Source: Clostridia bacterium
GTDB taxonomy: Bacteria > Bacillota > Clostridia > Oscillospirales > CAG-272
NCBI GenBank assembly: GCA_017456905.1
Contig: JAFTIL010000025.1
Span: forward strand, 438-64,437
Direction: 5' to 3'
Length of the DNA: 64,000 bases
Shown: positions 9,568-40,801 of the stretch, piece after piece
Layout: each line of letters starts with the position of its first letter
Position numbering within the stretch: the stretch's first letter is position 1
The notes under the pieces: generated by a model
Database searches by the model: none
The model's input: the letters and a program-made list of their open reading frames with translations, nothing else
What the model was told of the DNA's origin: nothing
Made by a program: the position numbers and the translations under genes

Positions 9568-11589
9568 CTAATCCTCCTTACGATTATTTTTTCTGTCTGT
9601 GATCAAACTGATGATTGACCTGACCCCCTTGGCTATATAGTCATATACCCAAAGGATTCCTTTGAGAATGTAGGGCCACAGCGGGGCCAGCAAAAGGATC
9701 AGCAGGAGGATCATGACTAAAGCAAAGACGACCTGATACCATTCAAGCTCGCCGGGCAGATCAATCGGCGGGGTGATATCACCAATGGCGTCGATTGGGT
9801 CGGCAACCACGGGGATGACGGTGTAGATACCTTCCTTGTTGAAAGTGAGCTGGATGATATCAAAGTCAAAGAACACGTTTTCATTGGCAATATAAGCCTG
9901 ATCCTCATACTTTTTATCAGCCCCGAGAAAGCCTCCACCGGGCTCAATGATGGTCGCCGCTTGAGAATAGTAATCACTGGTCGCGAATCGGAACAGCACC
10001 ACTACCTCGTCATTGTCGGTCGCGTCCAGGTAGGTCTCACGGATGGAGTCCACGTCCTGCATATTCACAAGCAGCCGCTCGGCAACCGTGGCGTTTTTTC
10101 CTTCCAGGTCATCGGCTTTAAGAATCTGTATGGGCGCAACCACACGGCTTTCCTCATCAGGCCCGCCGGTAAAGGCCGCGCCCAGACCAAAGTTCATCCA
10201 GTTTTCCCAAAAGCTTGGTTCCTTCTCTGACCAGCTGGACAGCACTTGGGTATCGAGGTCAGCATCAAAATCGTAATAGGAATAGCCCATCTGGATCTTT
10301 CCGCTGGCGTTGTTCACCTTGCGGCTATCGTCGATATCGTTCTCAAAAAGATCTGCGCTGATGGTGCCGTTTTTCACGGGAAGTCTGCCATTTTCAAAGG
10401 TTTTGCTATAACTGCGGATGTATTCGTAAAGCTCATTGCTTTCCACACCGCCCACGCTGACCTTTTTGGCGTAGGGATCGTATTCCTTAATATCCTCAAC
10501 GTAGAACATATAGTAGAGCACGTTGGTGGGTTTATGGTAATATCCTGTACCCAAATTCCAACCCCATTGGGCTACGTACATATCTCCCGCTTTGCCCGCG
10601 CCAATGCCCAGGCTGTAGCCGATATCCTTTTCATATTCGTACTGCCCATATTGATTAGGCGTCGTTCCCAGCGGTACTCCCGCATAGGGCTTGGCTGACT
10701 CAAAAAAGGCAGCATTACTGGTGACAAGAATATCCTTGGTTTTGTACTCATACCACTCTGCCTTGATGCGTTGGAGTTTGCCATATTCCTCAATGTAGCT
10801 CTTGGGAACGGTGAAGTACACGGTATCCAGCTGATTCTGATGACCCGCGCCAAGGGTTGAAGTTTCAGAGCGGAAGAAAGTATGTTTTACGGATAATTCG
10901 ATGGTTTCCAGCTTATCTATTTCACAGTTTAAGGTGCTTTGCGTGTTCACATTGGGGCCATATCCCGCCGCGTAACCGGAGAACCGGTAGGTGGTACCCA
11001 CATGGTATTCGGTGGCGTTGCCTGAACCGTGAAGCGCCAGCTCAATGCCGGAAATATCGTAACGTCTCTCGTTGTTGTTCACTCTCTGATCGAAGGTAGT
11101 TCCATCGATCTTGCGGTCGATAACCTTGTACTTATAGAAAAGGTTCTTGTAATCCCCAGACTCCACCTTACTGCAAAACTCCAGGCTGAACTTCTCATAT
11201 ATGTTGGGACTGCCGTCCTTATTATAGGAGACCGCCATCTGGATCTTATTGCGCTTGCTGTCGGTGGAAAGATTCCTACCTTGAGGATTATAGATATACA
11301 CGTACAAACCGTAATTATCCCGTTGGTTTGCCTTAAACGCATAACAATACTCTATGAAGCTGATGACCTGCACCTCTCCGTTTTCGTTGAAGGGATAGTT
11401 TCGGATATCGAAAGGCTTCCCGTTCACGGTAGAGGTAAGCAGGTCATCCAGTACCTTGGTATTGTCGAAGCTGCTGCCGTTACCCGCCGCGTAGGCGGTG
11501 GTGCTGAAGACCCCAAAGAGAGTCACCAGCACCATCACCATGGCGGCCACGCGGAGCAGCGGTGTTTTTACTGCTCCCGCATGGATCAA
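9568..11589 (-). CDS. secreted protein with a C-terminal membrane anchor (673 aa)
   Basis: TTG start overlapping the upstream stop. Signal peptide ending TTAYA-AG. C-terminal TM (VVFALVMILLLILLLAPLW) followed by a basic tail. Confidence 0.6.
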   Translation of the reverse strand: MIHAGAVKTPLLRVAAMVMVLVTLFGVFSTTAYAAGNGSSFDNTKVLDDLLTSTVNGKPFDIRNYPFNENGEVQVISFIEYCYAFKANQRDNYGLYVYIYNPQGRNLSTDSKRNKIQMAVSYNKDGSPNIYEKFSLEFCSKVESGDYKNLFYKYKVIDRKIDGTTFDQRVNNNERRYDISGIELALHGSGNATEYHVGTTYRFSGYAAGYGPNVNTQSTLNCEIDKLETIELSVKHTFFRSETSTLGAGHQNQLDTVYFTVPKSYIEEYGKLQRIKAEWYEYKTKDILVTSNAAFFESAKPYAGVPLGTTPNQYGQYEYEKDIGYSLGIGAGKAGDMYVAQWGWNLGTGYYHKPTNVLYYMFYVEDIKEYDPYAKKVSVGGVESNELYEYIRSYSKTFENGRLPVKNGTISADLFENDIDDSRKVNNASGKIQMGYSYYDFDADLDTQVLSSWSEKEPSFWENWMNFGLGAAFTGGPDEESRVVAPIQILKADDLEGKNATVAERLLVNMQDVDSIRETYLDATDNDEVVVLFRFATSDYYSQAATIIEPGGGFLGADKKYEDQAYIANENVFFDFDIIQLTFNKEGIYTVIPVVADPIDAIGDITPPIDLPGELEWYQVVFALVMILLLILLLAPLWPYILKGILWVYDYIAKGVRSIISLITDRKNNRKED

Positions 11590-18123: not shown

Positions 18124-19437
18124 TCAATTATCCAAATTAACCGGCCCTGGCAGAATGATCTGTACCCCAAACATTCCGAATTCTTCAAAGTAGTCAATCA
18201 TGCCGTGATAGTCAGAAACGATCTTCTCAACGATCTGGTGTCCCCAACCGTGGGAGTCTCCGGATTTCTTCGTAGTTCGAAGTTCTTTATTGTTTTCCAA
18301 TACAGACTTTTTAACCGTGTTCTTGCAGATAATAATGCGATTGGAATTTTGTTTGGAGAACAAGAGTTCTATTCGCTTCTCTTCTACCTGCCCAACCGCC
18401 TCTATGGCATTATCCAAAATATTGCCCATGAGGCAAGCAAGATCAGCGTCTCGGATATCAGACAGATCGCCAATGGAACCGGAAATGATAACACGGGTGT
18501 TTTTCAAAGCGCACAGCTTGGAATTGATCAGATAATCCAAAATGGTGTTGTCGGACCGTATCAGTTTTCCCATTTGATCGACCTGAGGCAGAAGAGACTG
18601 AATGTATGTCTTACATGCTTCGCTTTCATCTTGCTCCAAGTAACCTGACATAACGGTCAGATGTTGCTTCATGTCATGCTGCACTTTGCGCACATTCTCC
18701 CAAACTGCCGAGGCATCATTATGGCGAGCCTTTTCAAACGCCATTTTTTCTTCCAATAGTTTTAGCTCATATCTGCTTTTTTGCAGCTTTTGAATTTGAT
18801 ACAGAAGGATATATAGAAATACATTCGTTAAAATAAATGCAAGAACGATAACGAGAATATGTGTCTGAAAATTGGTTGCTTCAGGTAAAACTGCTATGTA
18901 CAATGCGGCTCCTAAACCAAACATTGTAGCCAGCGATAGAAAGAAAGTCAATATCCCATTCCATATATTCATGGCTTCTTCAGATTTAAAAACATGAAGA
19001 ATAAATTGCAGGATCGAGAATAGGGCGATCTTGTGCAAGAATATATAGATAAATCGACTAACTCCCGTAGAACCCAGCATTAAAACTTCGAAATCTTTTA
19101 TGATCATGGACAAACCCATATACAAGAAACTACTGAGAAGAACAAATGTTACCTCATATATGCAGGCAGCCATAATGGCACGGAATTTGTGCTTTTTGGA
19201 TATCCATAATGAAAATGCAGTCGCAATCAAAAAAAGTACGATTGAGATAACCGGATAATAGTCTGGCAAAAGGAAATCGCCAATAAGAGTAATACCAAAC
19301 AACAACAAAATCGCCGGAATGGTTAATTTACTCGTTTTAAATGTAACATGATTATACCGAATTATAAAGTATACGAAAAGAATGCTATCAAACAAGGACG
19401 TTGCTATTTCAACGATAAGACCGATCGTATCTGTCAT
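18124..19437 (-). CDS. AgrC-like sensor histidine kinase (polytopic sensor plus GHKL ATPase)
   Basis: About 6 N-terminal TM helices. H-box VQHDMKQHL, N-box LMGNILDNAIEA and G-box GDSHGWGHQIV. ATGA overlap with the RR gene. Confidence 0.8.
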   Translation of the reverse strand: MTDTIGLIVEIATSLFDSILFVYFIIRYNHVTFKTSKLTIPAILLLFGITLIGDFLLPDYYPVISIVLFLIATAFSLWISKKHKFRAIMAACIYEVTFVLLSSFLYMGLSMIIKDFEVLMLGSTGVSRFIYIFLHKIALFSILQFILHVFKSEEAMNIWNGILTFFLSLATMFGLGAALYIAVLPEATNFQTHILVIVLAFILTNVFLYILLYQIQKLQKSRYELKLLEEKMAFEKARHNDASAVWENVRKVQHDMKQHLTVMSGYLEQDESEACKTYIQSLLPQVDQMGKLIRSDNTILDYLINSKLCALKNTRVIISGSIGDLSDIRDADLACLMGNILDNAIEAVGQVEEKRIELLFSKQNSNRIIICKNTVKKSVLENNKELRTTKKSGDSHGWGHQIVEKIVSDYHGMIDYFEEFGMFGVQIILPGPVNLDN

Positions 19438-20168
19438 TTGGCAAATCTCCTTCGGGTGAATTGCATATAGGATTCCTTAAAAGCCACCAATTTACGTCTG
19501 CTGATGTTTATGAGAGCACCGTTTTTCATGCCCAGGTATCCATCCTCATGGATATTCTCGATATGTTCCTCGTTCACAATATAAGCAGAATGCACACGGA
19601 AGAAATCGTATGGTTTAACACGCTCTTCAACAGATGTCATTGTGCCTCGGCAACGGTATTCTTTCCCGGAAGTCATCTTAATTACGTAATAATTCTTCTC
19701 ACCTTCAAAATACATGATGTCTCGCAATCTAAGTAACGTATCACCATCTGTAGTTTCAAAAAGCAAGGCTTCTTCATCTGAAATGCATTTTTCGATGACC
19801 TTTTTGAACGTTACCGGCAATTCCTCTTCCAAATGCGATTTCCGAAGAAAACGAAAAGGCGCATATTCAAAGGAGCTATAAACAAAATCATCATACGCAG
19901 ACACAAAAATAATGATCGTATCCGGGGTTTTCTCCTTTAGTTCAGAGGCCAAGCGAAATCCGTTGATTTTCGGCATATCAATATCTAAAAACATAATGTT
20001 GATAACATGACTTTTTACATATCGCAGAACATCTTCGCCCGAACCAAAAGCAGGAGTAATTCTACAATCAATACGATCCGGTAAATGATATGCACAAAGC
20101 TCCCGTATTTTCTTGATCAGCTGATTGGCAAATTGAGGGTTATCGTCGCATACAGCAATCGTCAGCAT
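19434..20168 (-). CDS. LytTR-family response regulator (AgrA-like)
   Basis: Receiver domain (VCDDNPQ...FLDIDMPKINGF) plus a C-terminal LytTR domain (FFRVHSAYIVNEEHI). Confidence 0.85.
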   Translation of the reverse strand: MLTIAVCDDNPQFANQLIKKIRELCAYHLPDRIDCRITPAFGSGEDVLRYVKSHVINIMFLDIDMPKINGFRLASELKEKTPDTIIIFVSAYDDFVYSSFEYAPFRFLRKSHLEEELPVTFKKVIEKCISDEEALLFETTDGDTLLRLRDIMYFEGEKNYYVIKMTSGKEYRCRGTMTSVEERVKPYDFFRVHSAYIVNEEHIENIHEDGYLGMKNGALINISRRKLVAFKESYMQFTRRRFAK

Positions 20169-20200: not shown

Positions 20201-20229
20201 ATTATAACACATAATGTTAATAGAGTCAA
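20201..20229 (-). promoter_or_regulatory. sigma-A promoter for the RR-HK genes
   Basis: TTGACT-17 nt-TATAAT on the minus strand, with TGT immediately upstream of the -10. Confidence 0.6.
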
Positions 20230-20249
20230 TATTTCATATGATTTTAGTA

Positions 20250-20282
20250 AAGACAGGGTACGGTGTTTCCATACCCTGTCTT
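20250..20282 (-). terminator. hairpin terminator/attenuator after agrD
   Basis: aagacagggta/taccctgtctt 11-bp stem directly after the agrD-like stop. The T tract is weak. Confidence 0.5.
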
Positions 20283-20288
20283 TCTGAT

Positions 20289-20417
20289 TTACTTGCGCAG
20301 CTTCTTCAGCATAGCGGGCTCAGCGGGCTGATATACGAGCCACTGGGATGCGGTACCACCGGCAGAAACGGCAGTTTTCATTGCGAACTTTGCAATGACT
20401 TCAGCGAGTTTTTTCAT
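20289..20417 (-). CDS. agrD: AgrD-like autoinducing peptide precursor (42 aa, not in the ORF track)
   Basis: MKKLAEVIAKFAMKTAVSAGGTASQWLVYQPAEPAMLKKLRK. AAAGGAGG lies 7 nt upstream. Overlaps the agrB 3' end. Has an amphipathic leader and a YQPAEP motif like clostridial AgrD (HQPEEP). Confidence 0.6.
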   Translation of the reverse strand: MKKLAEVIAKFAMKTAVSAGGTASQWLVYQPAEPAMLKKLRK

Positions 20418-20997
20418 GATGCGTCCTCCTTTCAAATAATGGTATTATCATCAAAATAATGATCGCACCGAGGGTATAAAAAATGGTGTTACTGATTAAA
20501 GGCACGATAAATGAAATCGCAAAGCCTACCACAGACCAAATTACATACAAGGTTAAAGCGGTAATTTTATGTTTTTGTTTTTCTTGATCTGTCAGAGGCT
20601 TGTGTATGTTTTCAATAGGGCCGAAGAGCCAAATAATCAGGCAACCGATGGTTAATAGTGCAAGGAATAATAACCGAGGAACCGGAAAAACATTTGCAAG
20701 AAAAACAGATATACCAAAGCTGATAACTGTGCAGAGCTTACACATGATGTAACTATTTGCATGATATCCACCTGTATACTGCCTAATGAGGATAAATGTT
20801 GCCAGAAAAGTTAACGTTGAGATGATTTGACCGTATAGTATTCCTATAACTAATATGATGGATGTGCTGATTAGGAAAGACAATATTAGTTCCAATCCGT
20901 ATACGTAAACTTCCTCATATTCTTCGTCAATAACCTGTTTCGCACGCAATCGACGGCAAATCCACTTTGCTAATTTGTTTTCCATTTCGTGATCCAT
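20401..20997 (-). CDS. agrB: AgrB-family membrane peptidase
   Basis: 198 aa with 4-6 TM helices. The RQYTGGYHA motif is typical of AgrB (conserved His). Confidence 0.8.
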   Translation of the reverse strand: MDHEMENKLAKWICRRLRAKQVIDEEYEEVYVYGLELILSFLISTSIILVIGILYGQIISTLTFLATFILIRQYTGGYHANSYIMCKLCTVISFGISVFLANVFPVPRLLFLALLTIGCLIIWLFGPIENIHKPLTDQEKQKHKITALTLYVIWSVVGFAISFIVPLISNTIFYTLGAIIILMIIPLFERRTHHEKTR

Positions 20998-21046
20998 CCC
21001 TTCTTGAATTTGGGATTCATTTTTGTGTTCTTTAGCTGATGGTCCC

Positions 21047-21188
21047 AGTATAGCACATAATCGAGAACAAAACGAAAACTGGGATAAATGGTAGTAAATC
21101 TGGGATAAATGGTCACGAAAAAACCTTTTATCCCTTGACAGCGCATTCTATCCCACTTTTCGTTTTTGCTTCTTTTTTTGTATATAAT
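21047..21188. promoter_or_regulatory. divergent duplicated promoter/operator modules (candidate LytTR sites)
   Basis: Read in each direction of transcription, the pattern is two TATCCC direct repeats (period 21 or 20 nt), then TTTTCGTTTT, then a -10 box (TATACT at 21047-21052 on the minus strand, TATAAT at 21183-21188 on the plus strand). The -10 lies exactly 26 nt after the proximal repeat in both. Confidence 0.6.
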
Positions 21189-21219
21189 ATATCCACCAAA
21201 ACCAAAGGAGGTGGATGCG

Positions 21220-21528
21220 ATGGATCATTCACGAAACTACCTCGATCACTTGTTGGAAAGTATCGAGAAAAAACGTTTGCTCAGCATCAAAGAGTTTACC
21301 AAAACAGATCTGAATCGAAACACGGATCTGGAGGACGTTACCGCATGGTACGGTCAGCTGGCGACGTTGGTACGAAGCAAACCGCCGAACAGGTACGTTC
21401 GTTGCTTGCTAATCTACGAAGACGAGCACGGGCGAATCCAAAAAGTGGATTATGACTATTTCGAACCAACCGACGCTGAAATCGGCGATACAGTTTTTGT
21501 AATCGCCACAGACATCACATTCAAATAA
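21220..21528 (+). CDS. hypothetical protein (102 aa) upstream of the RHS gene
   Basis: GGAGGTGG RBS 5-6 nt before ATG 21220. Confidence 0.5.
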   Translation: MDHSRNYLDHLLESIEKKRLLSIKEFTKTDLNRNTDLEDVTAWYGQLATLVRSKPPNRYVRCLLIYEDEHGRIQKVDYDYFEPTDAEIGDTVFVIATDITFK

Positions 21529-21540
21529 CAAGGAAGGAAC

Positions 21541-24500
21541 ATGAAAATGGAAAACAACAAACGCTTTATGACCAGACGCGCCTTCTCCATGTGGATCAAA
21601 ACCGTCGCCTGTGTGCTTTCGATTTTGATGATGCTCTATGCAGTGCCGACCAATGTCTTTGCGGAATTGATCGATGCTATTGATGGAGCCCTGGAGAATC
21701 AAGCGGACGAGGTCACTGTCGAAGACACCTTGAAGAAAGAAGTCTTTGAAGTAATCGACCGCCGTGAGGAAACGGTGAAGCACTTCCGCACCGAAGACGG
21801 CTCTTTCACCGCCGTTCAGTATAACGTGCCCATTCACGAAAAGGACGAGAACGGTGAGTGGCAGGATATTGATAATACCCTGTCGGAGTCCGGAAGTGAA
21901 TACGCCACCTCCAATGCCCGCGTAAAATTTGCCAAGAAAACGACGGGTAATGAGACCCTGTTTACTCTCCACGACGGAAACCGCAAGATCACCATGAGCC
22001 TGTCCGGAGCCAATAAGAAGGTTGCAGGCCAGGTCACCAACACTCAGACCGAGTTCCCCGAGGACGCTACCCAGCTCCAGAAAATGATGACCTTAGATAA
22101 GCTGTCCTCCAAGATTCTGTACCCCGAAATCCTGGAAGGGGTTGATCTTGAATATGTGGTGGAATCCTGCAATATCAAGGAAAACATCATCGTCAAGGAG
22201 CGCGCTGATTCTTATAGCTACACTTTCGAGATCAAGTTGAACAATCTGGAAGCCGAGCTCTGTGTGGACGGCTCTGTGGCGATTTCGGATCCCGATACGG
22301 ATGAAGTTGTTTATACGATCCCCAAGGGATACATGTTTGATGCAGACGGAGAGTATTCTGATGCTGTGGAATATACATTGACCAATGTTGGGAACGGGAA
22401 ATACTCCCTGACCGTGACGGCAGATGCTGAGTGGATCAATGACGAGGGGAGAGCTTTTCCTGTAACCATTGATCCTACTTTGAGTAATCCTTCATATAAT
22501 ACTGTAGATGCTCAAATCAGTTCTGGTAGTAGATACTATAGCAATGACATTATTCACATTGCAGGCTCTACATACTTGTATTGGAAGTCAAACTTGCCCT
22601 CTCTGCCTGAAGATGCATATATTGTATCTGCCTATCTTTCCTATCTTAGCTCTAATGGAAGTGAAGATACGATTGGGGCATATCTTGTAACCGCAGATTG
22701 GGGGAGTAGCGGTGTCCCTGCTATTAATACAACGCTCATTGCTCACCAGCAATATGAGCTTGCGGACATGCTTGCTTTGAACTATTGGTTTAATTGGGAT
22801 ATTACCGAAGCAGTGGTTGCTTGGTATAACGGAACTCCCAATTACGGTATTTCTTTGAGGAACATGACCGATTCGAATGAAGGTATGGCTCTGTATTCCT
22901 ATGAAGCCACACAAGCGATTTGCCGCCCTCAATTTTGCATTGCGTACCGTGATGTTTCCGGTATAGAGTCTTATTGGTCATATGCGACTCAAAATGCAGG
23001 ATTGGCAGGCTCGGGTGCAGTAAATCAAGCTACCGGTGAATTGACTTTCTCGACAGATATGTTAGCAATGACAGATCATTTGTTCGGTTATACACCGGCT
23101 CTTGTTTACCAATCTTCCAAAAGTGCTGAAGAAAATACAAATGAATATAATGAAAATAGTCCCTTTATTTATTATACAACAGGATTGGGTTGGCATTTAA
23201 GTACGGATATCAGTGTATGTTGGAAACCCTTTGAAACTTCAGACGGCACAGAATACATGATCTATACTTATACAGATGGCGATGGAACAGAACATTGCTT
23301 TACAGCAAGCTCAACGGATTATGTCAATAGCGCGTATGATGAAGATGGGTTGGGGCTGTATTTGTATCATTCCATTAATAGTTCGTATATGCAGATTACA
23401 GACGCATCAGGAAATATTCAAACATTCACCGTCTATTCTTCAAACAATGGATACATGGAAGAAGGGGCACTTATTAGTTCTTATGCTGATTCAAACGGAA
23501 ACAAAATACAGTTTAATCGAGATGTTTACGGAAGTATCATGTCGCTTGGTCTCATTCCTACAGGGTTAGCTGAAATAACCTTTTTAAATTTCACCTATAG
23601 TTCCGACGGTTATTTGAGCCAAATTGAAGATTCTACTTACGGAAGAATCGTATCTTTTGAATATTCAAATGAGCCCAACGATGATGCCGACGAATGCGAC
23701 GGTGTCTACTTAAGATCTGTTGAGTATTCACACACTGAGGGAGGCACTACATGCGTGGATGCTTTGATCAAATATTCTTATACGAATATTGTAAATGAAT
23801 CTACCGAAAGTGATACCTATCGTCTATCTACTGCTACAGATACTTTGTCTGGATTAACGATTGAATATGCCTATAATGATGCCGGCCAGGTAATTGCGGT
23901 AACAGAGTACGCATCCGAAGACGGAGAAATCACTGCCGAAGGACAATCTATTCAATTTAGTTATAATGTTAGATTCACCGACATTCAGACAAGCGGTAGC
24001 GATGATGTCCTTGGAACTGACGATGATATTATCACTCGTTATTGCTTCGATCGTGCCGCACGTGCGGTTAGTGTATATTCTACTGACCTCTCTGGAGAAA
24101 CCATTTACGGAGCGTCTGCCGGAACTTATGAAAGTGAAGAAGCAGATGAATCAAGTAATAACAAGCTGAAAAGTTCTGTTGTATCGGGCGGTTCTTCGAC
24201 TAATTATTTGATCAATGGCGGTTTCGAACTCACAAATTCGTCTGCCGTGCCTTACTGGTATGCTTCTTCCAGTTCGCGCATTAGCATCAATGATCCGACC
24301 TACGGTTTGTCTAAAGAAGTTTGTTTTACACCTGCCTATAATGCACAAGATTCTATATATCAGCTTGTAAAATTGGATAATGGTAAATACACCGTTTCCT
24401 TTGATTACTCAACAATCAGTTGCGAAAATGTAGATATTTGGATCCAAGTTCAATCGAACACAAGATCAACCGTCATTGCAGAAAAGAAGTTGGCCGTCAA

Positions 24501-27500
24501 TTTGGACTACGCTGCTGAACGAGTCTTCGATAGTTTGTCTTTTGAAGCCAATCATACTTCCGGTATTGACACCTATAAAATTTCTTTCATTGTAAAGGGT
24601 ACTGCTACTGATTGCACAGAAGCTATCGTTTATGCGGATAATTTCATGTTGGAAAAGAGTATTGGCCCCAGCTCTTATACCATGATTCAATATGGCAATT
24701 TTGAAGCATTTTCTTCTCTTGAAGAAAATGCAATCAGTAACTTTTGGAATATTGCCTCCGATTCCAGTTACAGCAGCATTAGTAATGAAGAATTGCATCT
24801 TTATAGCAGCATTGAAAAGCAAGCTTTTGCATCGCAAACCATCTATAGTGCAAGTTCTGCTGCGTTGGATCAATACGATAGATTGGGAACTGTATACAGC
24901 CCTTCCGGAACATATGTTATCTCCGGCTTTGCACAAAGCGATGATGCTGTTCCTTCCGCGAGCGGATATTTTGCTCTTCGGGTCGAAGTAGAATATTATG
25001 ATAAAACAAATGGCTCCGATGTTAAGAATTTCCAATTCGATTTTTTGGACTCATTGAATGATAAGCAATTTGTAACAGGTTCATTTGAATTGGATAATAC
25101 TCGCTTCATCAAAGCAATTCGTGTTATCTGCGACTACAGCAATCAGCCCGGTGATGCGATTTTCGATGACATCAGCGTAGTCAGAGTGTCGGACAATAGC
25201 GTTTCCTCCTATGAATACTACACACAGGAAGAGGGTTCTCATGCTGCCGGCAAGATTAAAACACACCGTACACCTCAAACTACGACAAAATATTATTACG
25301 ATATCGCTACTGGTCAAGTATCTGAGTATGATACGTATACTCTTGGTGTTCTCAAGAACATGACGCTATGCTTCTACAATTCTTCCTCCAAAAAACTGGA
25401 AGAGCAGTATGATATGCGGTTCCGTGAGGATGGGTCTCTAATTGATGAGACTGTGACACTTCATACATATAACACATATGGTATGGATACCATTACAGAT
25501 ATGTATGTCATAACATATGATCCTGACGATGATAATGTCGTTGAAAGCACTTCTCCCAAATTGCGCAGCCAAACCGGATATATTACTACCTCTGGTTCTC
25601 ATATTTTCGGAGCTGTAAGCTATACCACCGATACCTCCGGAGTAAGTATGTACTATCAGTATGATAGCGCTACCGGCTGGCTGAAATTCGAGTACACGCT
25701 CAATTACTACGGTCTATACTATACCTATGATGGAATGGGACGAATAACGGCTGTTAATCCTCTGGAGTATTCTCCTACCGATTCGCTTTTTTATGCGTCA
25801 ACCACCGAAGAAGAAGTAGAATATACGTACAATGCTAAGGGACAAATCAGTCAGATGGACACCAAAACCACATCGTATGCATATACTTATGATGATTTTG
25901 GCAATACTACTTCCATTAAAGCGGGTAATAGCGTGTTGGCCCAGTATCAGTACGACCAGTTTAATGGTAAGCTCCAGACAATGACTTACGGCACGGGAGA
26001 AATTGTCCGCTATGTATACGACGAACTTGACAGAATTTCTGAAATATGGTATACTGTTCTCGGAGAAGATCCCGACTGCCGTTATCGATACACTTATACC
26101 GATCGCGGATCGCTGTCTCGTGTGGAAGATTTTGTAATTAGTCAAGAAATGCTGTATCAGTACGATGCTTCTGGCAATTTGATTGGCTGCACAGTAGTCG
26201 ATACGACGGAGAATGTGGTGCTTGCCGGCTATACGTATTGGTACGACGAAGAAAATCGCCTCTCTGAATATGAATACGGTTATGATTACTATTACGGAAC
26301 CGAAAATATGTTCAGCACGGTCTATGGACTGTATACATATGGTGAGGATCAGTCTATCGAACAATATACGCTGTATAGCGATTCTACCTGCGTAGCCAAA
26401 ATCAATTATAACTACGACAAAATGAATCGCTTGGATAGCAAAACATATACATATCCGAGCTTTAACCAGCAGGTCTTGTATACATACAAAGATCGCAGTT
26501 CTACCCTTTCAACGGTTCAGGTGTCGAAATACACCTCCAAGATCAACAATACTACATCTTCGGAATATACTTATACATACGATACCCACGGGAATATTAA
26601 GAAGATTGTCGACCTCGAAGGAAATATTACCACATATGTTTATGACGACCAAAACCAGTTGACCCGCGAGAATTTCAGCAATGCTGCTGATTCCACCAAG
26701 AGTTATACATATGTGTATGAATACGATAAAGCCGGCAACAGAACCAGTAGAAAGAAATATGCTTATACCACCGGTTCTGTCGCATCGCTGACTCCTACCT
26801 CTACCCAAACCCTGACCTATAGTACCGGGGCATGGGGCGATCAGTTGGCAAATACCACGTATGACGCCTTGGGAAATCCTCTGACCTACAACGGTTACGC
26901 TATGACTTGGGATGGCCGTCAGCTTATGGAAATGAGCATGACCGGTGGGCAGTTTGTCTATAGCTTCACATACAACGACGAGGGCATCCGTACAAGCAAA
27001 AATGCCGCCGGAAGTTTACACATCTATACCTTGGAGGGTTCCAAGGTGGTCAAGGATAGTTGGGGAAACCGTATGCTCCTTTTCCTGTATGATGAAAGCG
27101 GTTCTCCCATCGGCCTGCAATATCGAGACACAAGCTATGCCGAAGGGGTATTCGACACATACTATTTTGAGAAAAATCTTTTCGGTGACATCATCGCCAT
27201 TTATAATTCTTCTGGCACCAAGATTGGCACCTATACCTACGATGCATGGGGCAACTGCACTACAAGCACTACATCCGAATCTACCACCGCTGAAAAGCGA
27301 GTCGTAAAGAATTATAATCCCTTCCGTTACAGGGGGTATTTCTACGATTATGAGTTGGGTCTGTATTACTTGCAGAGTCGGTATTATAATCCTAACACTG
27401 GTAGATTTGTTCAACCAGCAAGCATATCAAGCTTAAATTGTGCATCTATTTATTCTTTTAACCTATATGCGTATGCAACTAATGATGCTGTGGGAATTAA

Positions 27501-28125
27501 ATATACTACAAGTGGATATGGTTTAAATGTTAGCAATGATATGGAAAGCACAATTACTTCAACCAGATTAAACCCCGCTTCGCATAACCTCGAGACTACT
27601 GTTTATGGAAAAAGCAAAAGAATAAAATTCAATTTAGACTGGCTTGCCAATGGAATATCTACTAGTTCTACCATCCACGGATTGTTTACTTCGGGTGCAA
27701 CATTACTAAATCACATTGGATACTTTAATATCGGCAAAAATATTGGAGCCTTCTCCGACGATATGATTTTGCTTGGATCGTCTGTGAAAAAAGGGATTCT
27801 AGCATTTAATGAATTTAGTTGGGGATTAGGAAAAGCAGATGTGTTTAGTATAGGGCTGGGAGTGGTTCTAGATATATACGATAGTTACCAGCGTGATGTA
27901 AGTACAGGAGGGATCATTTTAGGTGCAACTTTAACCGCTGCCAAAGGTGTGGGACTAATATACGCAAACAAATTGATTATGTCTGGTGCAACATCAATCG
28001 GGTCAGCTATTTGCCCTGGCCCAGGTACAGCGGTTGGTTTTGTAGTTGGAGGGATTGTATGTATTTTTGTTGATGTTTTTGTAAGTAGCTGGGTTGACGA
28101 ATCTATTGATTCAATAGTTGAATAG
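21541..28125 (+). CDS. Sec-dependent RHS/YD-repeat polymorphic toxin (WapA-like) with a variable C-terminal domain
   Basis: 2194 aa. N-terminal signal peptide (VPTNVFA-E). Many YD repeats (YTYD..GN, YDALGN). RHS core end YNPFRYRGYFYDYELGLYYLQSRYYNPNTGRF. About 200-aa C-terminal tip. Confidence 0.9.
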   Translation: MKMENNKRFMTRRAFSMWIKTVACVLSILMMLYAVPTNVFAELIDAIDGALENQADEVTVEDTLKKEVFEVIDRREETVKHFRTEDGSFTAVQYNVPIHEKDENGEWQDIDNTLSESGSEYATSNARVKFAKKTTGNETLFTLHDGNRKITMSLSGANKKVAGQVTNTQTEFPEDATQLQKMMTLDKLSSKILYPEILEGVDLEYVVESCNIKENIIVKERADSYSYTFEIKLNNLEAELCVDGSVAISDPDTDEVVYTIPKGYMFDADGEYSDAVEYTLTNVGNGKYSLTVTADAEWINDEGRAFPVTIDPTLSNPSYNTVDAQISSGSRYYSNDIIHIAGSTYLYWKSNLPSLPEDAYIVSAYLSYLSSNGSEDTIGAYLVTADWGSSGVPAINTTLIAHQQYELADMLALNYWFNWDITEAVVAWYNGTPNYGISLRNMTDSNEGMALYSYEATQAICRPQFCIAYRDVSGIESYWSYATQNAGLAGSGAVNQATGELTFSTDMLAMTDHLFGYTPALVYQSSKSAEENTNEYNENSPFIYYTTGLGWHLSTDISVCWKPFETSDGTEYMIYTYTDGDGTEHCFTASSTDYVNSAYDEDGLGLYLYHSINSSYMQITDASGNIQTFTVYSSNNGYMEEGALISSYADSNGNKIQFNRDVYGSIMSLGLIPTGLAEITFLNFTYSSDGYLSQIEDSTYGRIVSFEYSNEPNDDADECDGVYLRSVEYSHTEGGTTCVDALIKYSYTNIVNESTESDTYRLSTATDTLSGLTIEYAYNDAGQVIAVTEYASEDGEITAEGQSIQFSYNVRFTDIQTSGSDDVLGTDDDIITRYCFDRAARAVSVYSTDLSGETIYGASAGTYESEEADESSNNKLKSSVVSGGSSTNYLINGGFELTNSSAVPYWYASSSSRISINDPTYGLSKEVCFTPAYNAQDSIYQLVKLDNGKYTVSFDYSTISCENVDIWIQVQSNTRSTVIAEKKLAVNLDYAAERVFDSLSFEANHTSGIDTYKISFIVKGTATDCTEAIVYADNFMLEKSIGPSSYTMIQYGNFEAFSSLEENAISNFWNIASDSSYSSISNEELHLYSSIEKQAFASQTIYSASSAALDQYDRLGTVYSPSGTYVISGFAQSDDAVPSASGYFALRVEVEYYDKTNGSDVKNFQFDFLDSLNDKQFVTGSFELDNTRFIKAIRVICDYSNQPGDAIFDDISVVRVSDNSVSSYEYYTQEEGSHAAGKIKTHRTPQTTTKYYYDIATGQVSEYDTYTLGVLKNMTLCFYNSSSKKLEEQYDMRFREDGSLIDETVTLHTYNTYGMDTITDMYVITYDPDDDNVVESTSPKLRSQTGYITTSGSHIFGAVSYTTDTSGVSMYYQYDSATGWLKFEYTLNYYGLYYTYDGMGRITAVNPLEYSPTDSLFYASTTEEEVEYTYNAKGQISQMDTKTTSYAYTYDDFGNTTSIKAGNSVLAQYQYDQFNGKLQTMTYGTGEIVRYVYDELDRISEIWYTVLGEDPDCRYRYTYTDRGSLSRVEDFVISQEMLYQYDASGNLIGCTVVDTTENVVLAGYTYWYDEENRLSEYEYGYDYYYGTENMFSTVYGLYTYGEDQSIEQYTLYSDSTCVAKINYNYDKMNRLDSKTYTYPSFNQQVLYTYKDRSSTLSTVQVSKYTSKINNTTSSEYTYTYDTHGNIKKIVDLEGNITTYVYDDQNQLTRENFSNAADSTKSYTYVYEYDKAGNRTSRKKYAYTTGSVASLTPTSTQTLTYSTGAWGDQLANTTYDALGNPLTYNGYAMTWDGRQLMEMSMTGGQFVYSFTYNDEGIRTSKNAAGSLHIYTLEGSKVVKDSWGNRMLLFLYDESGSPIGLQYRDTSYAEGVFDTYYFEKNLFGDIIAIYNSSGTKIGTYTYDAWGNCTTSTTSESTTAEKRVVKNYNPFRYRGYFYDYELGLYYLQSRYYNPNTGRFVQPASISSLNCASIYSFNLYAYATNDAVGIKYTTSGYGLNVSNDMESTITSTRLNPASHNLETTVYGKSKRIKFNLDWLANGISTSSTIHGLFTSGATLLNHIGYFNIGKNIGAFSDDMILLGSSVKKGILAFNEFSWGLGKADVFSIGLGVVLDIYDSYQRDVSTGGIILGATLTAAKGVGLIYANKLIMSGATSIGSAICPGPGTAVGFVVGGIVCIFVDVFVSSWVDESIDSIVE

Positions 28126-28139
28126 GGAGGGTAGTATTC

Positions 28140-28637
28140 ATGACAAAAAAAATAGTTTCTATTTTTGATATACTGCTATACATAGCTATATGTATACCTT
28201 TCTTAACAATTTCAATATCAATTTTTTTGTTTGGAAGATTAAATGATTATGTTTGGATTTTATCGCATTGGTATTTGCTATTATTATTTGCCGTTGGTAT
28301 AATAATACCAATTGTGGGATTCCCTTTAATCAGATATGTCACAATAGATGATGGTGAAGTCGTATATTTTTATTATGCCTCTTTTACAACCAGCTGGGAA
28401 AAAATTGCTAATAGTATTGATGAAAAATGGAATCAACGTTTTTATATTTCTGAAATATCTTCTGTTGAAATTGTCAAATTAACAAAGGATGAGAAAAAAA
28501 GATTGGTTTATCTAAAGCATTTAAGAAACAAATATTTGAAAATAAATTTGAAATATGGTTCACCCAAATATATTTTTATAGGAAACTATTCAAATTTACA
28601 AATTCAAAAGATGATTAAATTATTTGTATCAAAATAA
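28140..28637 (+). CDS. candidate cognate immunity protein (membrane, 165 aa)
   Basis: GGGAGGG RBS 14 nt after the toxin stop. Two TM helices. Very AT-rich. Confidence 0.55.
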   Translation: MTKKIVSIFDILLYIAICIPFLTISISIFLFGRLNDYVWILSHWYLLLLFAVGIIIPIVGFPLIRYVTIDDGEVVYFYYASFTTSWEKIANSIDEKWNQRFYISEISSVEIVKLTKDEKKRLVYLKHLRNKYLKINLKYGSPKYIFIGNYSNLQIQKMIKLFVSK

Positions 28638-28789: not shown

Positions 28790-29818
28790 ATGAAAATTAA
28801 ATGCTTACTTTCCACCGTCTTTTGGCTGATACCCTGTATTCTCCTTCCTTCCTGCGCCCTAGACAAAGGAGAAATCAACGAAACCCATCTCCTTGACACC
28901 ATAGCAGAAACTGTGACAATTGCGGAAACCGAGACCGAAGAACCGATTACCGAAGATAAAACCCCTGCTAAGCCCGAAATTCCTGAGTTAGATAGTTACC
29001 AAGGTATGACCGCAGATATCCCCTATACCTTGCAGTTTCAATCCAATGGAGATGGTACTTGCGTTGTCAGCGGGATCGTAGCCAATCTTCTGTATGAAGG
29101 AACTTACACGGTTGAAATTCCCGAAACGTCACCCGACGGCGAAACCGTCGTGGGTATGTATCCTCCCAAGGCTACCTACAATCTTCCTCGGTATCTTACT
29201 GTTGAGGACTATGAGATCTTGGACGGTTGGATCGAGGATTACGTCAACAAAGGTATCGAGCAAGGCGTATTTGAGAACGACATGAATCTGAGAAGATTTC
29301 GGTCATACTACGTCCTGCGTAGCGCCGCGCTTTCTTCGACACCCGAGCTGAGGGATGATCTGATCGCACAATATCCCTTGTGCGAGTATGTGCCCGTGTA
29401 TGCCTTGGATCCGGCTATCACGGAAATCCAGCTTGCCAATATCTCGCAGTTGATCGAATCGGCTGCTCCTTGGTATACCACAGATTGGTGTTATGCCGGT
29501 CTGCTCTCCATGCAAAGCGTCGCCGGTCTGATGGGAGTTCAGGACGTGTATCTGGAAAGATGTCTTTCCGAGCACAGCTACCATTTGGAGAATGCGGATG
29601 CTGTCCGAATTCCCAAAACCGTCACGCAGTTTGGCGACAGCCTGACTACTCTTTCGTATTTGGGCGCAAGCCTGCTGATTTACGACGGAACTATGGAGGA
29701 ATTCAAGACCATCGTCGATGTGGAAATGCCCACCATGTGTCCGCTGACCGTGCAATGCACCGATGGTGAGCTGACCTTCGATGTTAGCGAGACACGGTAT
29801 CCCGTTTTTGCAGAGTGA
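28790..29818 (+). CDS. lipoprotein, function unknown
   Basis: AAGGAG RBS. Signal peptide with lipobox LLPSC. Confidence 0.6.
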   Translation: MKIKCLLSTVFWLIPCILLPSCALDKGEINETHLLDTIAETVTIAETETEEPITEDKTPAKPEIPELDSYQGMTADIPYTLQFQSNGDGTCVVSGIVANLLYEGTYTVEIPETSPDGETVVGMYPPKATYNLPRYLTVEDYEILDGWIEDYVNKGIEQGVFENDMNLRRFRSYYVLRSAALSSTPELRDDLIAQYPLCEYVPVYALDPAITEIQLANISQLIESAAPWYTTDWCYAGLLSMQSVAGLMGVQDVYLERCLSEHSYHLENADAVRIPKTVTQFGDSLTTLSYLGASLLIYDGTMEEFKTIVDVEMPTMCPLTVQCTDGELTFDVSETRYPVFAE

Positions 29819-30322
29819 TTCTTGTTTCTCCCATTGCAGAGTGATATGCTCTGTAATGGGAGAGTAGGGAAGAATCAATTTTCTCTACGCCAAATTATAT
29901 GCTAAGGGCCTTCCGGCCGAACAGAGAAATCTGTTTGTCGGGGAGGCTCTTTCTTACTGTGTGGAGGCTTGTCTACATTGGTGGACAGAGCGTATCAGAA
30001 AAGTCTTCGCTGTCAAGGTGAAAAAACTTCGCTGAAAACAAAATTCAACAGACATGGATGCAAACTTTTTTCTTGTACTCAAAAATAGCTTGCTCAGAAC
30101 CTTGACTGCCGCAGACTTTTCCGATGGGGTGTAGGTGCCCTTTGGGCAGAAAGGAGAAAAGTGTATGCAGATAAGAGCAAGATACAAATTAGGGCGAAGC
30201 CAATGCAAGTGTGGCTCAAAAGTGTCCGGTAACATCGCAAAACTCGCCACATCCGTCAGTTTACATTTGTACGCTAAACGTGTATGCTTATGGGTGAAAT
30301 CAAAAGAAAGGAGATTGCACCC

Positions 30323-31840
30323 ATGAAAACAGCCGTTATCTATGCCCGCTATTCCAGCGAGCGACAAACCGAACAATCCATCGAAGGTCAGCTCAGAGAG
30401 TGCATGGCCTACGCCGAGCATCACGATATGATGGTCGTAGATACTTACATCGACCGAGCCATGACCGGCACTAATGACAACCGAAATGATTTCCAGCGTA
30501 TGCTAAAGGATGCACAGAAAAAGGCGTGGGACGTCGTACTGGTGTACAAGCTTGACCGCTTCTCACGAAACAAGTACGAAATGGCGATCCACAAGAAGAC
30601 ATTGCGGGATTACGGCATATCCTTGGTGTCTGCCAAGGAGCATATTCCTGACGGACCCGAGGGCATCATTCTTGAATCGCTCCTTGAGGGCATGGCGGAA
30701 TACTACTCGGCAGAGCTGGCGCAGAAGGTCAGCCGAGGGATGAGGGAGACCCGCATCAAGGGCAACTACGCCGGAGGAGGGATCCCTTATGGGTACAAGG
30801 TCGAGAATCGGAAATTTGTTGTTTCCGAGGATGAGGCGCAGGTCGTCATCCGTATATATGAGATGTATGCCTCGGGGGTGATTGCAAAGAACATTATCAA
30901 GGCCCTTACGGATGAAGGGATCATGCACAGTTCGGGTAAGCCGTTTACAAGGGCCATCATATACGGCATCTTGCAGAACGAGCGTTACATCGGAGTGTAT
31001 CATCATAAAACCGAAGGTGCCTACACGCAAACCTTCCCGCCAATTGTTCCACAACACCTGTTCGATACAGTTCGAGCCATCGCGGAAGGTAACCGTCATG
31101 GCAAGCATCCCGAGGACGTGGTCTACTTGCTTCGTAACAAGCTCAAATGCGGTTACTGCGGTAAGTCGATCACATCCGAGTCGGGAACATCACGAAATGG
31201 TTCTGTTGTTCGCTATTACAAATGCAGTACGCGGAAAAAGGATTCGACCAAGTGCCACAAGACACCCATCCGCAAAGAGATACTGGAGCAACTGATCGTG
31301 GATGTTACCCTTAAGGTCCTAAACAATCCGCAAACCATTAATGCGATTGCGGACCGCGTATTTGAAGCTCACGAAAAGCGGATAGCTGACACGTCGGTGA
31401 TCAACATTCTGGAAGCCGAGCGAGACAAGATCCGCAAGGCTCTCGACAATATGCTCAACGCCGTGGAGCAAGGCATTATCACCAGCTCTACCAAGCAACG
31501 CATCGAAGAATTGGAAGCCGCCTTGGAAGTTGCAGAAGGAAAGGTATTGGTGGCACGATCCAAGAGCAAGGTGCAGATCACGCCGGAAGATATCAAGAAA
31601 TTTATCCTCAAAGCTCTCAAAAAAGAACCTCGGCTGATGATCAAAACGCTCGTGAAGGAAGTGATCCTATACGATGACAAAGTGGAAATCTACTACAACT
31701 GCATAGATAAGAAAAAACCCGATGACTTGGATCATCGGGCTTTTTGCATATATAGGCAAGATTGCGATATTGATCCGAAGGATTTCGGGTTGTATCGGAA
31801 CGTAGCAGGGTATGCATTCGCATTAGAAATGTACTTTTAA
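30323..31840 (+). CDS. large serine recombinase
   Basis: N-terminal resolvase domain AVIYARYSSERQ (catalytic Ser) ...VLVYKLDRFSRN. Recombinase domain. Zn-ribbon CGYCG...YYKC. Coiled-coil C-terminus. AAAGGAGA RBS. Confidence 0.9.
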   Translation: MKTAVIYARYSSERQTEQSIEGQLRECMAYAEHHDMMVVDTYIDRAMTGTNDNRNDFQRMLKDAQKKAWDVVLVYKLDRFSRNKYEMAIHKKTLRDYGISLVSAKEHIPDGPEGIILESLLEGMAEYYSAELAQKVSRGMRETRIKGNYAGGGIPYGYKVENRKFVVSEDEAQVVIRIYEMYASGVIAKNIIKALTDEGIMHSSGKPFTRAIIYGILQNERYIGVYHHKTEGAYTQTFPPIVPQHLFDTVRAIAEGNRHGKHPEDVVYLLRNKLKCGYCGKSITSESGTSRNGSVVRYYKCSTRKKDSTKCHKTPIRKEILEQLIVDVTLKVLNNPQTINAIADRVFEAHEKRIADTSVINILEAERDKIRKALDNMLNAVEQGIITSSTKQRIEELEAALEVAEGKVLVARSKSKVQITPEDIKKFILKALKKEPRLMIKTLVKEVILYDDKVEIYYNCIDKKKPDDLDHRAFCIYRQDCDIDPKDFGLYRNVAGYAFALEMYF

Positions 31841-34495: not shown

Positions 34496-35865
34496 TTATC
34501 CTTGTCCTCCTTTTTTTCTCCTGTTTTCCAATTGTAGCCGTCTTCATTCCGGTACGCTTCGCCCGCTGTAATCACAAAAGGAGTATCAAGGGTGGAGGAT
34601 AATGCCAACTTGGGATCAAATTTGTACTGTATTACTTTATCGGAAACAATATGGGCCGTTTTTTGGCCTCCCTTATTATATGTAACCCCGCCAGGAAAAA
34701 CTCGTCCAACTTCGTCTGTTAAAGGTGTTATGGGGGCCTTTTCAATTTTTTTCTGATGCTTATTTACAATTGGACCACTAACATCAAATACCTGATTGAA
34801 AACAAACTGGATGGTAGTGGGAAACGCATTGTTATACGAGGTGGTATGGACATAGTCCTCCACCCAAGTCAAATTAGCCTGAATGTGTGCAACATCATAT
34901 GTTGAAACCACGCGCAACTCCAAGCCGGCCTTTTTTTTCTTTACTTTTTCGTCTTTCTGAAGAATATCGTAAATACACTCCGAATAGGGATCGGAATTGG
35001 GGGGCATATCAAAAATTACATGTGTAAATTTTTGGATGGAATTATCATTAAGCTTTTGGACAAAACTTCGTAGCACCTCTTTGTAATAACGAATACTAAC
35101 TACACTTCGGTATCCGCTGGCGTTCTTAGGTTGGAACATATTTTTTACCGCTTGCTCGGGCGAAGAAAATACGATATGTAGATTTTCACTGACAATAACA
35201 GCATTTTTCTCCTCAACGGTGACATCGGAGGATACATTTTCACCATTTCCATCGTTTGCGCTGGCGTCTTTTCTTTTAACCGCATAATCTCGCCAAACAA
35301 CAGTATCTTTTAATTTGGCATAGTCTTGAATTACCAGATCGGTAAAATATCTTTTTTGCTTGTCTTCATGTTTCTCAGATTGACACACTAAATATATTGA
35401 TCCGTTCAGTAAACCCGAATCGACCATTGCAATGTCGTTTTCTGATTGCAGAGAGCCGTCGCCCTTTATTTTTCCATCAACAAATCTCTCCAAACAGGTT
35501 CCCAAAATATCCATGTCAATGATAATTACATTTCGTTTGGGATCCTCTTCCAGCAACTCAATGGCCGTGCGAAGCGAAACAGAAGACTTGCCGCAACCAC
35601 CCTTTACAGAAGTTACTATTATGTATTCAAGATCATGGTTATCTTTCGAAGTAGCATCAGTAGCTTTAGCGGAACTGTCAGCTGCACGATTATTGGAAGA
35701 GGTTACTTTTCCTTGGTTCTCTGCAACCTTTTGGGCTATCTGCTCGAAACTTTGTTGGGGTGAAATTGCAGAAATACTCTCGCCGTTTTCGTCAAGGATA
35801 TTCTGTTGTGTCAAGTCGGATCCTTCTTCAGGCATTTGGGCCATATTTCCTTTTTTACTATCCAT
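34492..35865 (-). CDS. ParA/MinD (SIMIBI) type ATPase with an N-terminal low-complexity extension (start uncertain, 35844-35910)
   Basis: Deviant Walker A VTSVKGGCGKSS. A' motif IIIDMDILG. Walker B-like HVIFDMPPNSD. Confidence 0.7.
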   Translation of the reverse strand: MDSKKGNMAQMPEEGSDLTQQNILDENGESISAISPQQSFEQIAQKVAENQGKVTSSNNRAADSSAKATDATSKDNHDLEYIIVTSVKGGCGKSSVSLRTAIELLEEDPKRNVIIIDMDILGTCLERFVDGKIKGDGSLQSENDIAMVDSGLLNGSIYLVCQSEKHEDKQKRYFTDLVIQDYAKLKDTVVWRDYAVKRKDASANDGNGENVSSDVTVEEKNAVIVSENLHIVFSSPEQAVKNMFQPKNASGYRSVVSIRYYKEVLRSFVQKLNDNSIQKFTHVIFDMPPNSDPYSECIYDILQKDEKVKKKKAGLELRVVSTYDVAHIQANLTWVEDYVHTTSYNNAFPTTIQFVFNQVFDVSGPIVNKHQKKIEKAPITPLTDEVGRVFPGGVTYNKGGQKTAHIVSDKVIQYKFDPKLALSSTLDTPFVITAGEAYRNEDGYNWKTGEKKEDKDK

Positions 35866-35904
35866 AACAAAACGGCAACAGATACCATAGCACCGTATCT
35901 GTTG
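35866..35904 (-). terminator. intra-operon hairpin (possible partial terminator/attenuator)
   Basis: CAACAGATAC-9 nt-GTATCTGTTG followed by CCGTTTTGTT on the minus strand, between gene 1 and gene 2 of the operon. Confidence 0.4.
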
Positions 35905-35981
35905 CCTCACTTCCTTTCTCTGTTTGATTTTGTTTTACTGTCGCAAAGGTTTTTTCGGAGAAAATATTATTGATTTTGAAA

Positions 35982-40575: not shown

Positions 40576-40801
40576 GTGTTTCCCTCCGATTGATAAATTC
40601 AAAGGCCTTTGTGAGGATATTTTAACACAAATATCCATCAAAATCAATAACGCAGTTTCATTGTAGGCTCACCTAATGGGCGATATACCGAGCTCGTCCT
40701 TGAATAACCGATAAAGATAGGACTCAGAGTATCACAGTTTTTCATGCCCCGAGAAACCTATCAGGTATTTCGCATTTTATCATCATATCTCGCTACGGAC
40801 A

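Follow-up and report, generated by a model that had tools for sequence, protein, structure and literature searches.

A putative bidirectional control region shared by an agr-type quorum-sensing locus and an Rhs toxin operon in uncultured Clostridia

In a 64,000-nt stretch of the genome of a Clostridia bacterium (Oscillospirales, CAG-272; assembly GCA_017456905.1, contig JAFTIL010000025.1; hereafter the window), an interval of 142 bp (21047-21188) lies between an agr-like gene set and an operon that starts with a gene for a 102-aa protein (small102) and continues with a predicted Rhs-family polymorphic toxin and a candidate immunity gene. The interval holds two promoter copies back to back, and its sequence is best explained if the interval controls an agr-type peptide quorum-sensing locus in both directions and depends on an activator. 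Our reading, to which we assign a probability of roughly three in four, is that this region fires agrBD leftward and the small102-Rhs-immunity operon rightward upon accumulation of the peptide. Because conserved copies of a regulator-type promoter face both the agr genes and the Rhs operon, the predicted toxin would very probably be switched on together with the signal peptide at high cell density. Agr-type signalling is textbook knowledge for staphylococcal and clostridial pathogens; to our knowledge, next to nothing is known of agr outputs in the large uncultured groups of animal-gut Clostridia.

Anatomy of the control region and the agr-type locus

Sequence reading of positions 20700-21500 gives four TATCCC boxes, which form two direct-repeat pairs facing apart, each followed by a -10 box:

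21100-21110, minus strand: distal box on the agrBD side, ATTTATCCCAG (sequence reading, repeat search)
21079-21089, minus strand: proximal box on the agrBD side, ATTTATCCCAG (sequence reading, repeat search)
21047-21052, minus strand: -10 box of the agrBD promoter, TATACT, with TGC before it as an extended -10 (conserved in relatives)
21126-21136, plus strand: distal box on the small102/Rhs side, TTTTATCCCTT (sequence reading, pattern search)
21147-21156, plus strand: proximal box on the small102/Rhs side, TCTATCCCAC (sequence reading, repeat search)
21183-21188, plus strand: -10 box of the small102-Rhs promoter, TATAAT (at the 28-nt spacing usual in such modules)

On both strands a 10-nt spacer separates the boxes, giving a period of 21 nt on the minus strand, where the proximal box is followed by TTTTCGTTTTG, and of 20 nt on the plus strand, where it is followed by TTTTCGTTTTTG. 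The distance to the -10 box is the same on both sides, 26 nt from the 10/11-mer repeat and 28 nt from CCC. The repeat search returned an 18-nt direct repeat at spacing 21 in the intergenic region, and an 18-nt, 94% inverted repeat, TATCCCA[C/G]TTTTCGTTTT, that joins the two proximal halves. Neither divergent promoter passes a two-hexamer sigma-70 scan, and there is no usable -35 on either side. An earlier note, made from the sequence of the window alone, had described the same architecture twice in opposite directions, which is borne out to the base; its repeat periods of 21 and 20 nt, its hand count of 26 nt from proximal repeat to -10 box and its description of the -35 as poor are likewise right on both strands.

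The pattern TATCCC-N13-16-TATCCC occurs twice in the 64 kb, both times in 21047-21188, against a mean expectation of 0.03 in dinucleotide shuffles, of which none in 100 reached two matches. Allowing two mismatches gave no credible further pair in the window and hence no added regulon members.

Both pairs of boxes sit upstream of -10 box and start site and do not cover them. This bears on the idea that the regulator binds but represses, the sites being operators that hold both promoters off until release. Since a missing -35 is the signature of activator dependence, and characterized LytTR regulators activate at sites of this kind, repression is a very unlikely mode of action here.

The leftward genes form the agr-type locus:

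20401-20997, minus strand: AgrB peptidase/exporter (Pfam AgrB PF04647, 138 bits against a cut-off of 23)
20289-20417, minus strand: AgrD autoinducing-peptide precursor, 42 aa (NCBIfam TIGR04223, 38.8 bits against a cut-off of 19)
20246-20285, minus strand: hairpin 3' of agrD (RNA fold -25.3 kcal/mol, z = -7.2)
20201-20229, minus strand: promoter of the regulator-kinase operon, TTGACT-17-TATAAT, TG-extended and box-free (11/12, top hit of the promoter scan)
19434-20168, minus strand: LytTR-family response regulator, 244 aa, the presumed box binder (PF00072 Response_reg, 51 bits; PF04397 LytTR, 68 bits)
18124-19437, minus strand: AgrC-like sensor histidine kinase of the GHKL type, 437 aa (Pfam HATPase_c_5 PF14501, 74 bits against a cut-off of 22)

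Family searches confirmed the identities that had been proposed for AgrB, AgrD, the LytTR regulator, the GHKL kinase and the Rhs protein, and the separate regulator promoter claimed in the earlier note was recovered by the scan at 20229-20201 with its TG; a homologous counterpart is present in the relatives L001-L012 described below. The kinase gene overlaps the stop of the regulator gene by 4 nt. In the AgrA equivalog test (NF046049) the regulator scores 43.7 bits, below the cut-off of 400; it is a LytTR regulator within an agr-type locus and not an AgrA orthologue. The hairpin after agrD is likely a terminator or attenuator that divides agrBD from the regulator operon, and its weak T-tail (UUUACUAAAA) makes read-through possible. 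The AgrD sequence (...TA-SQWLV-YQPAEP...) has Ser at the ring position, with a predicted SQWLV ring (Ser lactone) followed by YQPAEP. The true AgrB start is probably the ATG at 20985, giving 194 aa, because the listed ATG at 20997 abuts a Shine-Dalgarno-like GAAGGG and 20985 is better spaced; in L030 and in the near-identical L100, AgrB is likewise called with 194 aa, in agreement with this start.

Ring variants occur among the relatives: SQWLV is found in the window and L038, SQWFV in L030-L033 (agrD of L030 at 9070-9198). The kinases of L030-L033 are 84% and their regulators 94% identical to those of the window, a situation that resembles agr specificity groups.

Conservation of the boxes with the regulator clade

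Related loci carry L numbers (L001-L012 and others), and the regulator set was fetched by regulator protein similarity alone. Regulator relatives at 48-77% identity were found in 12 loci, whose sources are without exception uncultured animal-gut Clostridia, Oscillospiraceae or Eubacteriales. A motif search found exact TATCCC pairs in 10 of the 12 loci with a regulator at least 48% identical: 12 pairs in 132 kb, compared with 0.03 in Markov simulations, each of them 96-382 bp upstream of where the regulator gene starts. L008 and L011, the two close loci left over, have GGGA(T/C)A variants at the same place, and the 240 kb around 17 LytTR regulators with at most 31% identity contain no exact pair. 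The flanking DNA of the relatives is unalignable with the window and partly GC-rich, and still the pairs and their period are kept, as is a TGnTATA(C/A)T 28-29 nt after the proximal box. Closer relatives, found via small102 homologues, retain the full four-box unit.

A metagenome scan with TTATCCC-N13/14-TTATCCC-N25/26-TGNTATAMT returned 49 contigs, 20 of which encode relatives of the regulator, the kinase, AgrB, small102 or the Rhs N-terminus beside the match. A looser pattern (WTATCCC as second box, N26-30, no TG) matched 12 times in viral contigs, without these genes nearby, and these matches were treated as chance. Of 81 distinct modules, 38 have a period of 20 bp, 41 one of 21 bp and 2 one of 22 bp. 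A -10-like hexamer was placeable in 77 modules; its distance from CCC is 28 nt in 51, 29 nt in 24 and some other value in 2. These modules give a box consensus of approximately WTTATCCCA(AAA); the proximal box is followed by a T-rich stretch, and the -10 box is preceded by TG. Such constancy marks a functional, activator-dependent class of promoters that goes with this regulator clade.

The 94% identity of the two proximal halves over 18 nt could reflect a recent duplication, and the repeats might then be a neutral relic of it or simple chance matches. With two pairs observed per window against 0.03 expected, and with position, period and -10 distance conserved across loci whose flanks cannot be aligned, this explanation is effectively refuted. 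The repeats were also considered as attachment sites of a serine recombinase, a candidate that was rejected on account of the fixed -10 distance and their presence in loci without a recombinase.

Several relatives show rearranged or decayed versions of the locus. In L038, the closest relative (regulator 99% identical), one 21-bp unit, the distal box on the agrB side, is lost, and 1.2 kb downstream there is a second complete divergent module, after which comes a small102 copy interrupted by stop codons (~9000-9160, 10100-10530). L036 (7190-8098) and L037 (8814-9722) encode a 302-aa fusion of an AgrB N-terminus to a kinase C-terminus, with agrD and the regulator deleted, and L102 (5856-6392) has a truncated AgrB without regulator or kinase. 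In L036/L037 and L102 a decayed agr locus is found beside an intact module and cargo, which leaves a toxin operon or an operon for a peptide made by the ribosome and modified after translation (RiPP) without a local activator. L003 (150-380), L004 and L005 carry inverted arrays of 7-nt tandem repeats between regulator promoter and start codon (CAAAATG... / ...CATTTTG or GATACAA... / ...TTGTATC), which would form a long hairpin in the 5' leader.

The rightward operon and its interchangeable cargo

Rightward of the control region, three genes follow in the same direction:

21220-21528, plus strand: small102, 102 aa, cytoplasmic, the first rightward gene (good ribosome-binding site; conserved family)
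21541-28125, plus strand: Rhs-family protein, a predicted polymorphic toxin of 2194 aa (RHS_repeat PF05593, 43 bits; TIGR03696, 48.7 bits)
28140-28637, plus strand: candidate immunity protein, 165 aa (two hydrophobic helices near the N-terminus; starts 14 nt past the Rhs stop)

What follows the outward-facing pair in the relatives is, with few exceptions, a small102 homologue (seen in L001-L012, L030-L038, L076, L093 and L101-L109), and a pair lies within 220 nt upstream of small102 in all but three of the loci that have it. The family comprises 63 clusters, all of about 100 aa and none with a Pfam domain or functional name; 12 residues are invariant over 51 sequences, which points to conservation at the protein level. 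Hydropathy gives no hydrophobic segment. An AlphaFold2 model from the 51-sequence alignment has two long helices and a three-stranded sheet (predicted local distance difference test, pLDDT, 85.9; predicted template modelling score 0.79), and replaced an earlier one from 18 close sequences that was discarded (pLDDT 46). A Foldseek search of the PDB with the model found no relative (best E = 0.53, template modelling score below 0.31), the best PDB sequence match of the profile had only E = 0.68, and Pfam and NCBIfam gave no match. A metagenome scan with peptides from the 18-sequence alignment matched 100 stretches, of which none was a relative. When Rfam was searched for RNAIII-like or other RNAs in the rightward transcript, sub-threshold noise was all that appeared; a role of the transcript as regulatory RNA is conceivable.

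The Rhs-immunity pair is very probably co-transcribed with small102, because the junction between small102 and Rhs is a 12-nt gap that holds an AAGGAAGGA ribosome-binding site ahead of the Rhs ATG, and no terminator-like site was found in 21200-23000. The Rhs protein begins with a hydrophobic Sec signal or anchor (hydropathy), followed by the RHS shell and by the Rhs core at aa 1900-1985 (TIGR03696, 48.7 bits against a cut-off of 32.5). Its 209-aa C-terminal domain is Gly-rich and ends in a hydrophobic GxxxGxxxG segment; an alignment to the Rhs protein of L036 (44% identity) covers aa 2-1984 and stops at the core, as for a variable C-terminal domain. From its composition, the tail would be expected to act as a membrane-permeabilizing toxin, with the 165-aa protein as membrane-embedded immunity.

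The N-terminal ~350 residues of the Rhs protein (aa 19-367; window 21541-22650) are shared at 25-34% identity with other large secreted proteins that also stand behind a module, in L030 (10343-11530), L061, L066, L080 and L087, and that bear lipase-like, C70-protease or CBM6 domains. This region has only a weak, sub-threshold DUF7948 match and is possibly a common anchoring or delivery domain. After the immunity candidate and an AT-rich gap of 150 nt, the window encodes a 342-aa lipoprotein (28790-29818, lipobox LLPSC), whose homologues directly follow small102 in L004 and L005, as though an insertion in the lineage of the window had placed the Rhs-immunity pair between small102 and the lipoprotein gene.

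The genes that follow small102 differ from locus to locus. L030-L035 have a 1380-aa RicinB-lectin/lipase-like protein, the first ~370 residues of which resemble the Rhs N-terminus; L036 and L037 another Rhs protein (2241 aa) with orphan toxin cassettes; L005 a BspA-type leucine-rich-repeat lipoprotein; L101-L105 a RiPP-like cluster with genes for a radical-SAM (S-adenosylmethionine) protein, a carrier protein, a 36-aa peptide, an S8 peptidase and an ATP-binding cassette transporter; and L038 and L106 short uncharacterized proteins. L076 and L093 have small102 at the head of the agrBD operon. Elsewhere the module stands directly before large secreted proteins with an Rhs-like N-terminus (L061, L066, L080, here with a C70 protease domain, and L087), or before a surface-layer homology protein, an extracytoplasmic-function sigma factor, an AMP-binding enzyme, a radical-SAM/SPASM enzyme and two families of small membrane proteins. 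The comparison indicates that the conserved rightward target is small102, whereas the Rhs-immunity pair belongs to a set of interchangeable cargoes. The agr locus of L061, where regulator identity is only 38%, has both pairs in divergent arrangement and an RHS_repeat protein (60 bits) on the opposite side, and the agr-Rhs pairing is therefore recurrent rather than a one-off adjacency. The earlier proposal that the rightward promoter serves the Rhs operon is supported by this recurrence and by the terminator-free 12-nt junction; as to the direct and conserved target, it has to be amended in favor of the unnamed 102-aa gene.

The regulated unit might essentially be small102, with Rhs and immunity uncoupled by attenuation or internal promoters and the toxin a mere passenger. 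Such an uncoupling would fit the constancy of small102 in front of varying cargo, its place at the head of the agrBD operon itself in L076 and L093, and a promoter-like site inside the Rhs gene (26027-26055, plus strand, TTGACA-17-TATACT with TG, 11/12). Promoter-like matches inside the operon are, however, not above expectation (32, compared with 26.1 +/- 4.4 in shuffles), the short small102-Rhs gap has its ribosome-binding site and no terminator-like site after it, the small102 and Rhs genes of L036 overlap by 4 nt, and in L061, L066, L080 and L087 no small102 stands between the module and the secreted proteins with the Rhs-like N-terminus. A passenger toxin is on balance improbable.

Less probable still is binding of the boxes by another protein, either small102 as an autoregulator or an XRE-type regulator of the surrounding genomic island. 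Nearly all loci with small102 have it behind a box pair, and a helix-turn-helix protein with tetratricopeptide repeats (39511-40647) and other XRE genes are present in these islands. Yet modules without small102 nearby in the contig lie beside the regulator-kinase pair in L007, L009 and L010, the confident small102 model matches no DNA-binding fold, the XRE neighbors are not conserved across loci, and direct repeats at 20-21 bp abutting a weak -35 have the published LytTR geometry.

Proposed circuit, known systems and significance

In the circuit that we propose, regulator and kinase would be made from their own near-consensus promoter, and AgrB would process AgrD into a cyclic (Ser-lactone) peptide. 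Once accumulated, the peptide would cause the kinase to phosphorylate the LytTR regulator, and a regulator dimer on each pair would recruit RNA polymerase, standing in for the missing -35; the boxes would lie at about -47 to -41 and -68 to -62, if transcription starts about 7 nt after the -10 box. Leftward firing would raise agrBD and amount to autoinduction, and rightward firing would express the conserved 102-aa gene and then the Sec-exported Rhs toxin with its membrane immunity candidate. Binding of the regulator to the boxes, activation rather than repression, transcription of the Rhs gene together with small102, density dependence and the activities of toxin and immunity protein are all predictions from sequence comparison.

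Several points weigh against this circuit. The link between boxes and this regulator comes from their co-occurrence, small102 co-occurs with the boxes almost as tightly, and association alone therefore cannot name the binder; the box is also quite unlike those published for AgrA or VirR/RgaR. Neither the 209-aa Rhs tail (Pfam, NCBIfam, PDB sequences) nor the 165-aa immunity candidate (Pfam, NCBIfam families) has a match, and the promoter-like site at 26027-26055 could give module-independent transcription of the 3' part of the toxin gene and of the immunity gene. The lineage is represented by uncultured metagenome assemblies only. Finally, production of their own peptide by module-bearing loci is not universal in the clade, because most relatives (L001-L012, L106-L109) have regulator, kinase and module, with small102 kept as well, and no agrB or agrD within 10 kb. 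The assumption that agrBD always adjoins the regulator was dropped for the same absence in L001-L012, and such agrBD-free regulator-kinase relatives may be orphan receivers. In L001 and L002 the inward-facing pair sits atop the regulator's own promoter, as if agrBD had been excised or never inserted.

In Staphylococcus aureus, P2 drives agrBDCA and P3 RNAIII/hld, each promoter having a LytTR direct-repeat pair beside a poor -35. AgrA acts on this divergent P2/P3 region (PMC3673130). The window likewise has two outward promoters in one short intergenic region, with predicted autoinduction of the peptide genes on one side and a predicted effector transcript on the other, and it encodes the full set of AgrB, AgrD, HPK10-like kinase and LytTR regulator. 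Its regulator, in contrast, falls below the AgrA equivalog cut-off and is encoded with the kinase outside a P2-type operon, on a separate near-consensus promoter behind a hairpin; its box, WTTATCCCA, is unrelated to the ACAGTTAAG-type AgrA box; and its effector transcript, unlike that of P3, opens with a conserved protein gene, carries a toxin operon and matches no RNA family. The architecture itself is not new, and the logic would be that of P2/P3 built from different parts.

Among Clostridia, the LytTR regulator RgaR of Clostridioides difficile needs G at -51 and -72 in two direct repeats for activation of spoZ and agrB1D1 (PMC10602386). These repeats are 21 bp apart and centered near -51 and -72 (PMC10602386), and the geometry of the window boxes is equal within a few bases. 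RgaS-RgaR is, like the pair in the window, a clostridial LytTR two-component system, and its regulator uses VirR-like boxes to activate agrBD and a few other promoters, those of spoZ and of small hypothetical genes among them. It is encoded apart from agrBD, whereas regulator and kinase adjoin agrBD in the window; the box sequence differs as well, and the outputs here are predicted secreted toxins and antagonism genes, not a sporulation small RNA. The VirR box is also unrelated to WTTATCCCA, which is a specificity distinct from the AgrA and VirR/RgaR boxes. Of the LytTR/AgrA site assignment made in the earlier note, the geometry stands, as it matches the RgaR repeats; the AgrA part does not, the box being unlike that of AgrA and the regulator no AgrA equivalog.

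In the regulons of class II bacteriocins (PlnC/D, ComE, BlpR) and in fsr/gelE-sprE of Enterococcus faecalis, a peptide signals by way of a kinase and a LytTR regulator to promoters with direct repeats, which stand before the genes for the signal and before neighboring genes for secreted antagonism or virulence factors with immunity. The fsr regulator has its own promoter, as has the regulator of the window. Unlike in these systems, the signal here is a predicted cyclic peptide processed by AgrB, a 2194-aa Rhs protein (elsewhere lipase-like, C70-protease or RiPP-like cargo) takes the place of small bacteriocins or proteases, and small102 as a leader gene has no counterpart. The Rhs operon itself resembles the Sec-dependent Rhs/WapA toxins of Gram-positive bacteria (WapA-WapI of Bacillus subtilis) in its signal sequence, RHS/YD shell, Rhs core, variable C-terminus and adjacent small candidate immunity gene, and differs in a C-terminal domain that is Gly-rich, hydrophobic and family-less. 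Quorum sensing affects wap and LXG toxin expression in B. subtilis (PMC12935306). That link runs via ComQXPA/Rap-Phr and global regulators, unlike the dedicated agr locus of the window that shares the promoter region of the toxin. No report of an agr or LytTR system that shares a control region with an Rhs toxin, nor of a WTTATCCCA-type box consensus or the small102 family, was found in the searchable literature.

The agr locus and the Rhs operon lie in a block (~18-40 kb) of about 40% GC, compared with 50-55% outside, together with a large serine recombinase (30284-31840) and a ParA-like gene (34492-35910). Because of the low GC, the recombinase and the ParA-like gene, the block is probably a mobile island. 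The helix-turn-helix protein encoded at 39511-40647, also in this block, resembles RRNPP-type peptide sensors.

More tentatively, and clearly short of an even chance, the module and small102 together may form a portable front end, gated by quorum sensing, to which uncultured Clostridia of gut and rumen attach exchangeable weapons, with small102 as a functional part of the circuit and agrBD-free regulator-kinase pairs listening to the peptides of their neighbors. Small102 would then be, for instance, a protein counterpart of RNAIII or a factor for peptide production.

The analysis places an agr locus and an Rhs polymorphic toxin in direct physical linkage and yields an operator consensus with fixed geometry and testable predicted regulon members. 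The same promoter head fronts many different antagonism genes, and at the center of the proposed circuit stands a small conserved protein without a fold relative in the PDB. That quorum sensing switches on antagonism together with immunity is already an established principle, and the finding therefore extends known biology with new cargo rather than overturning it.

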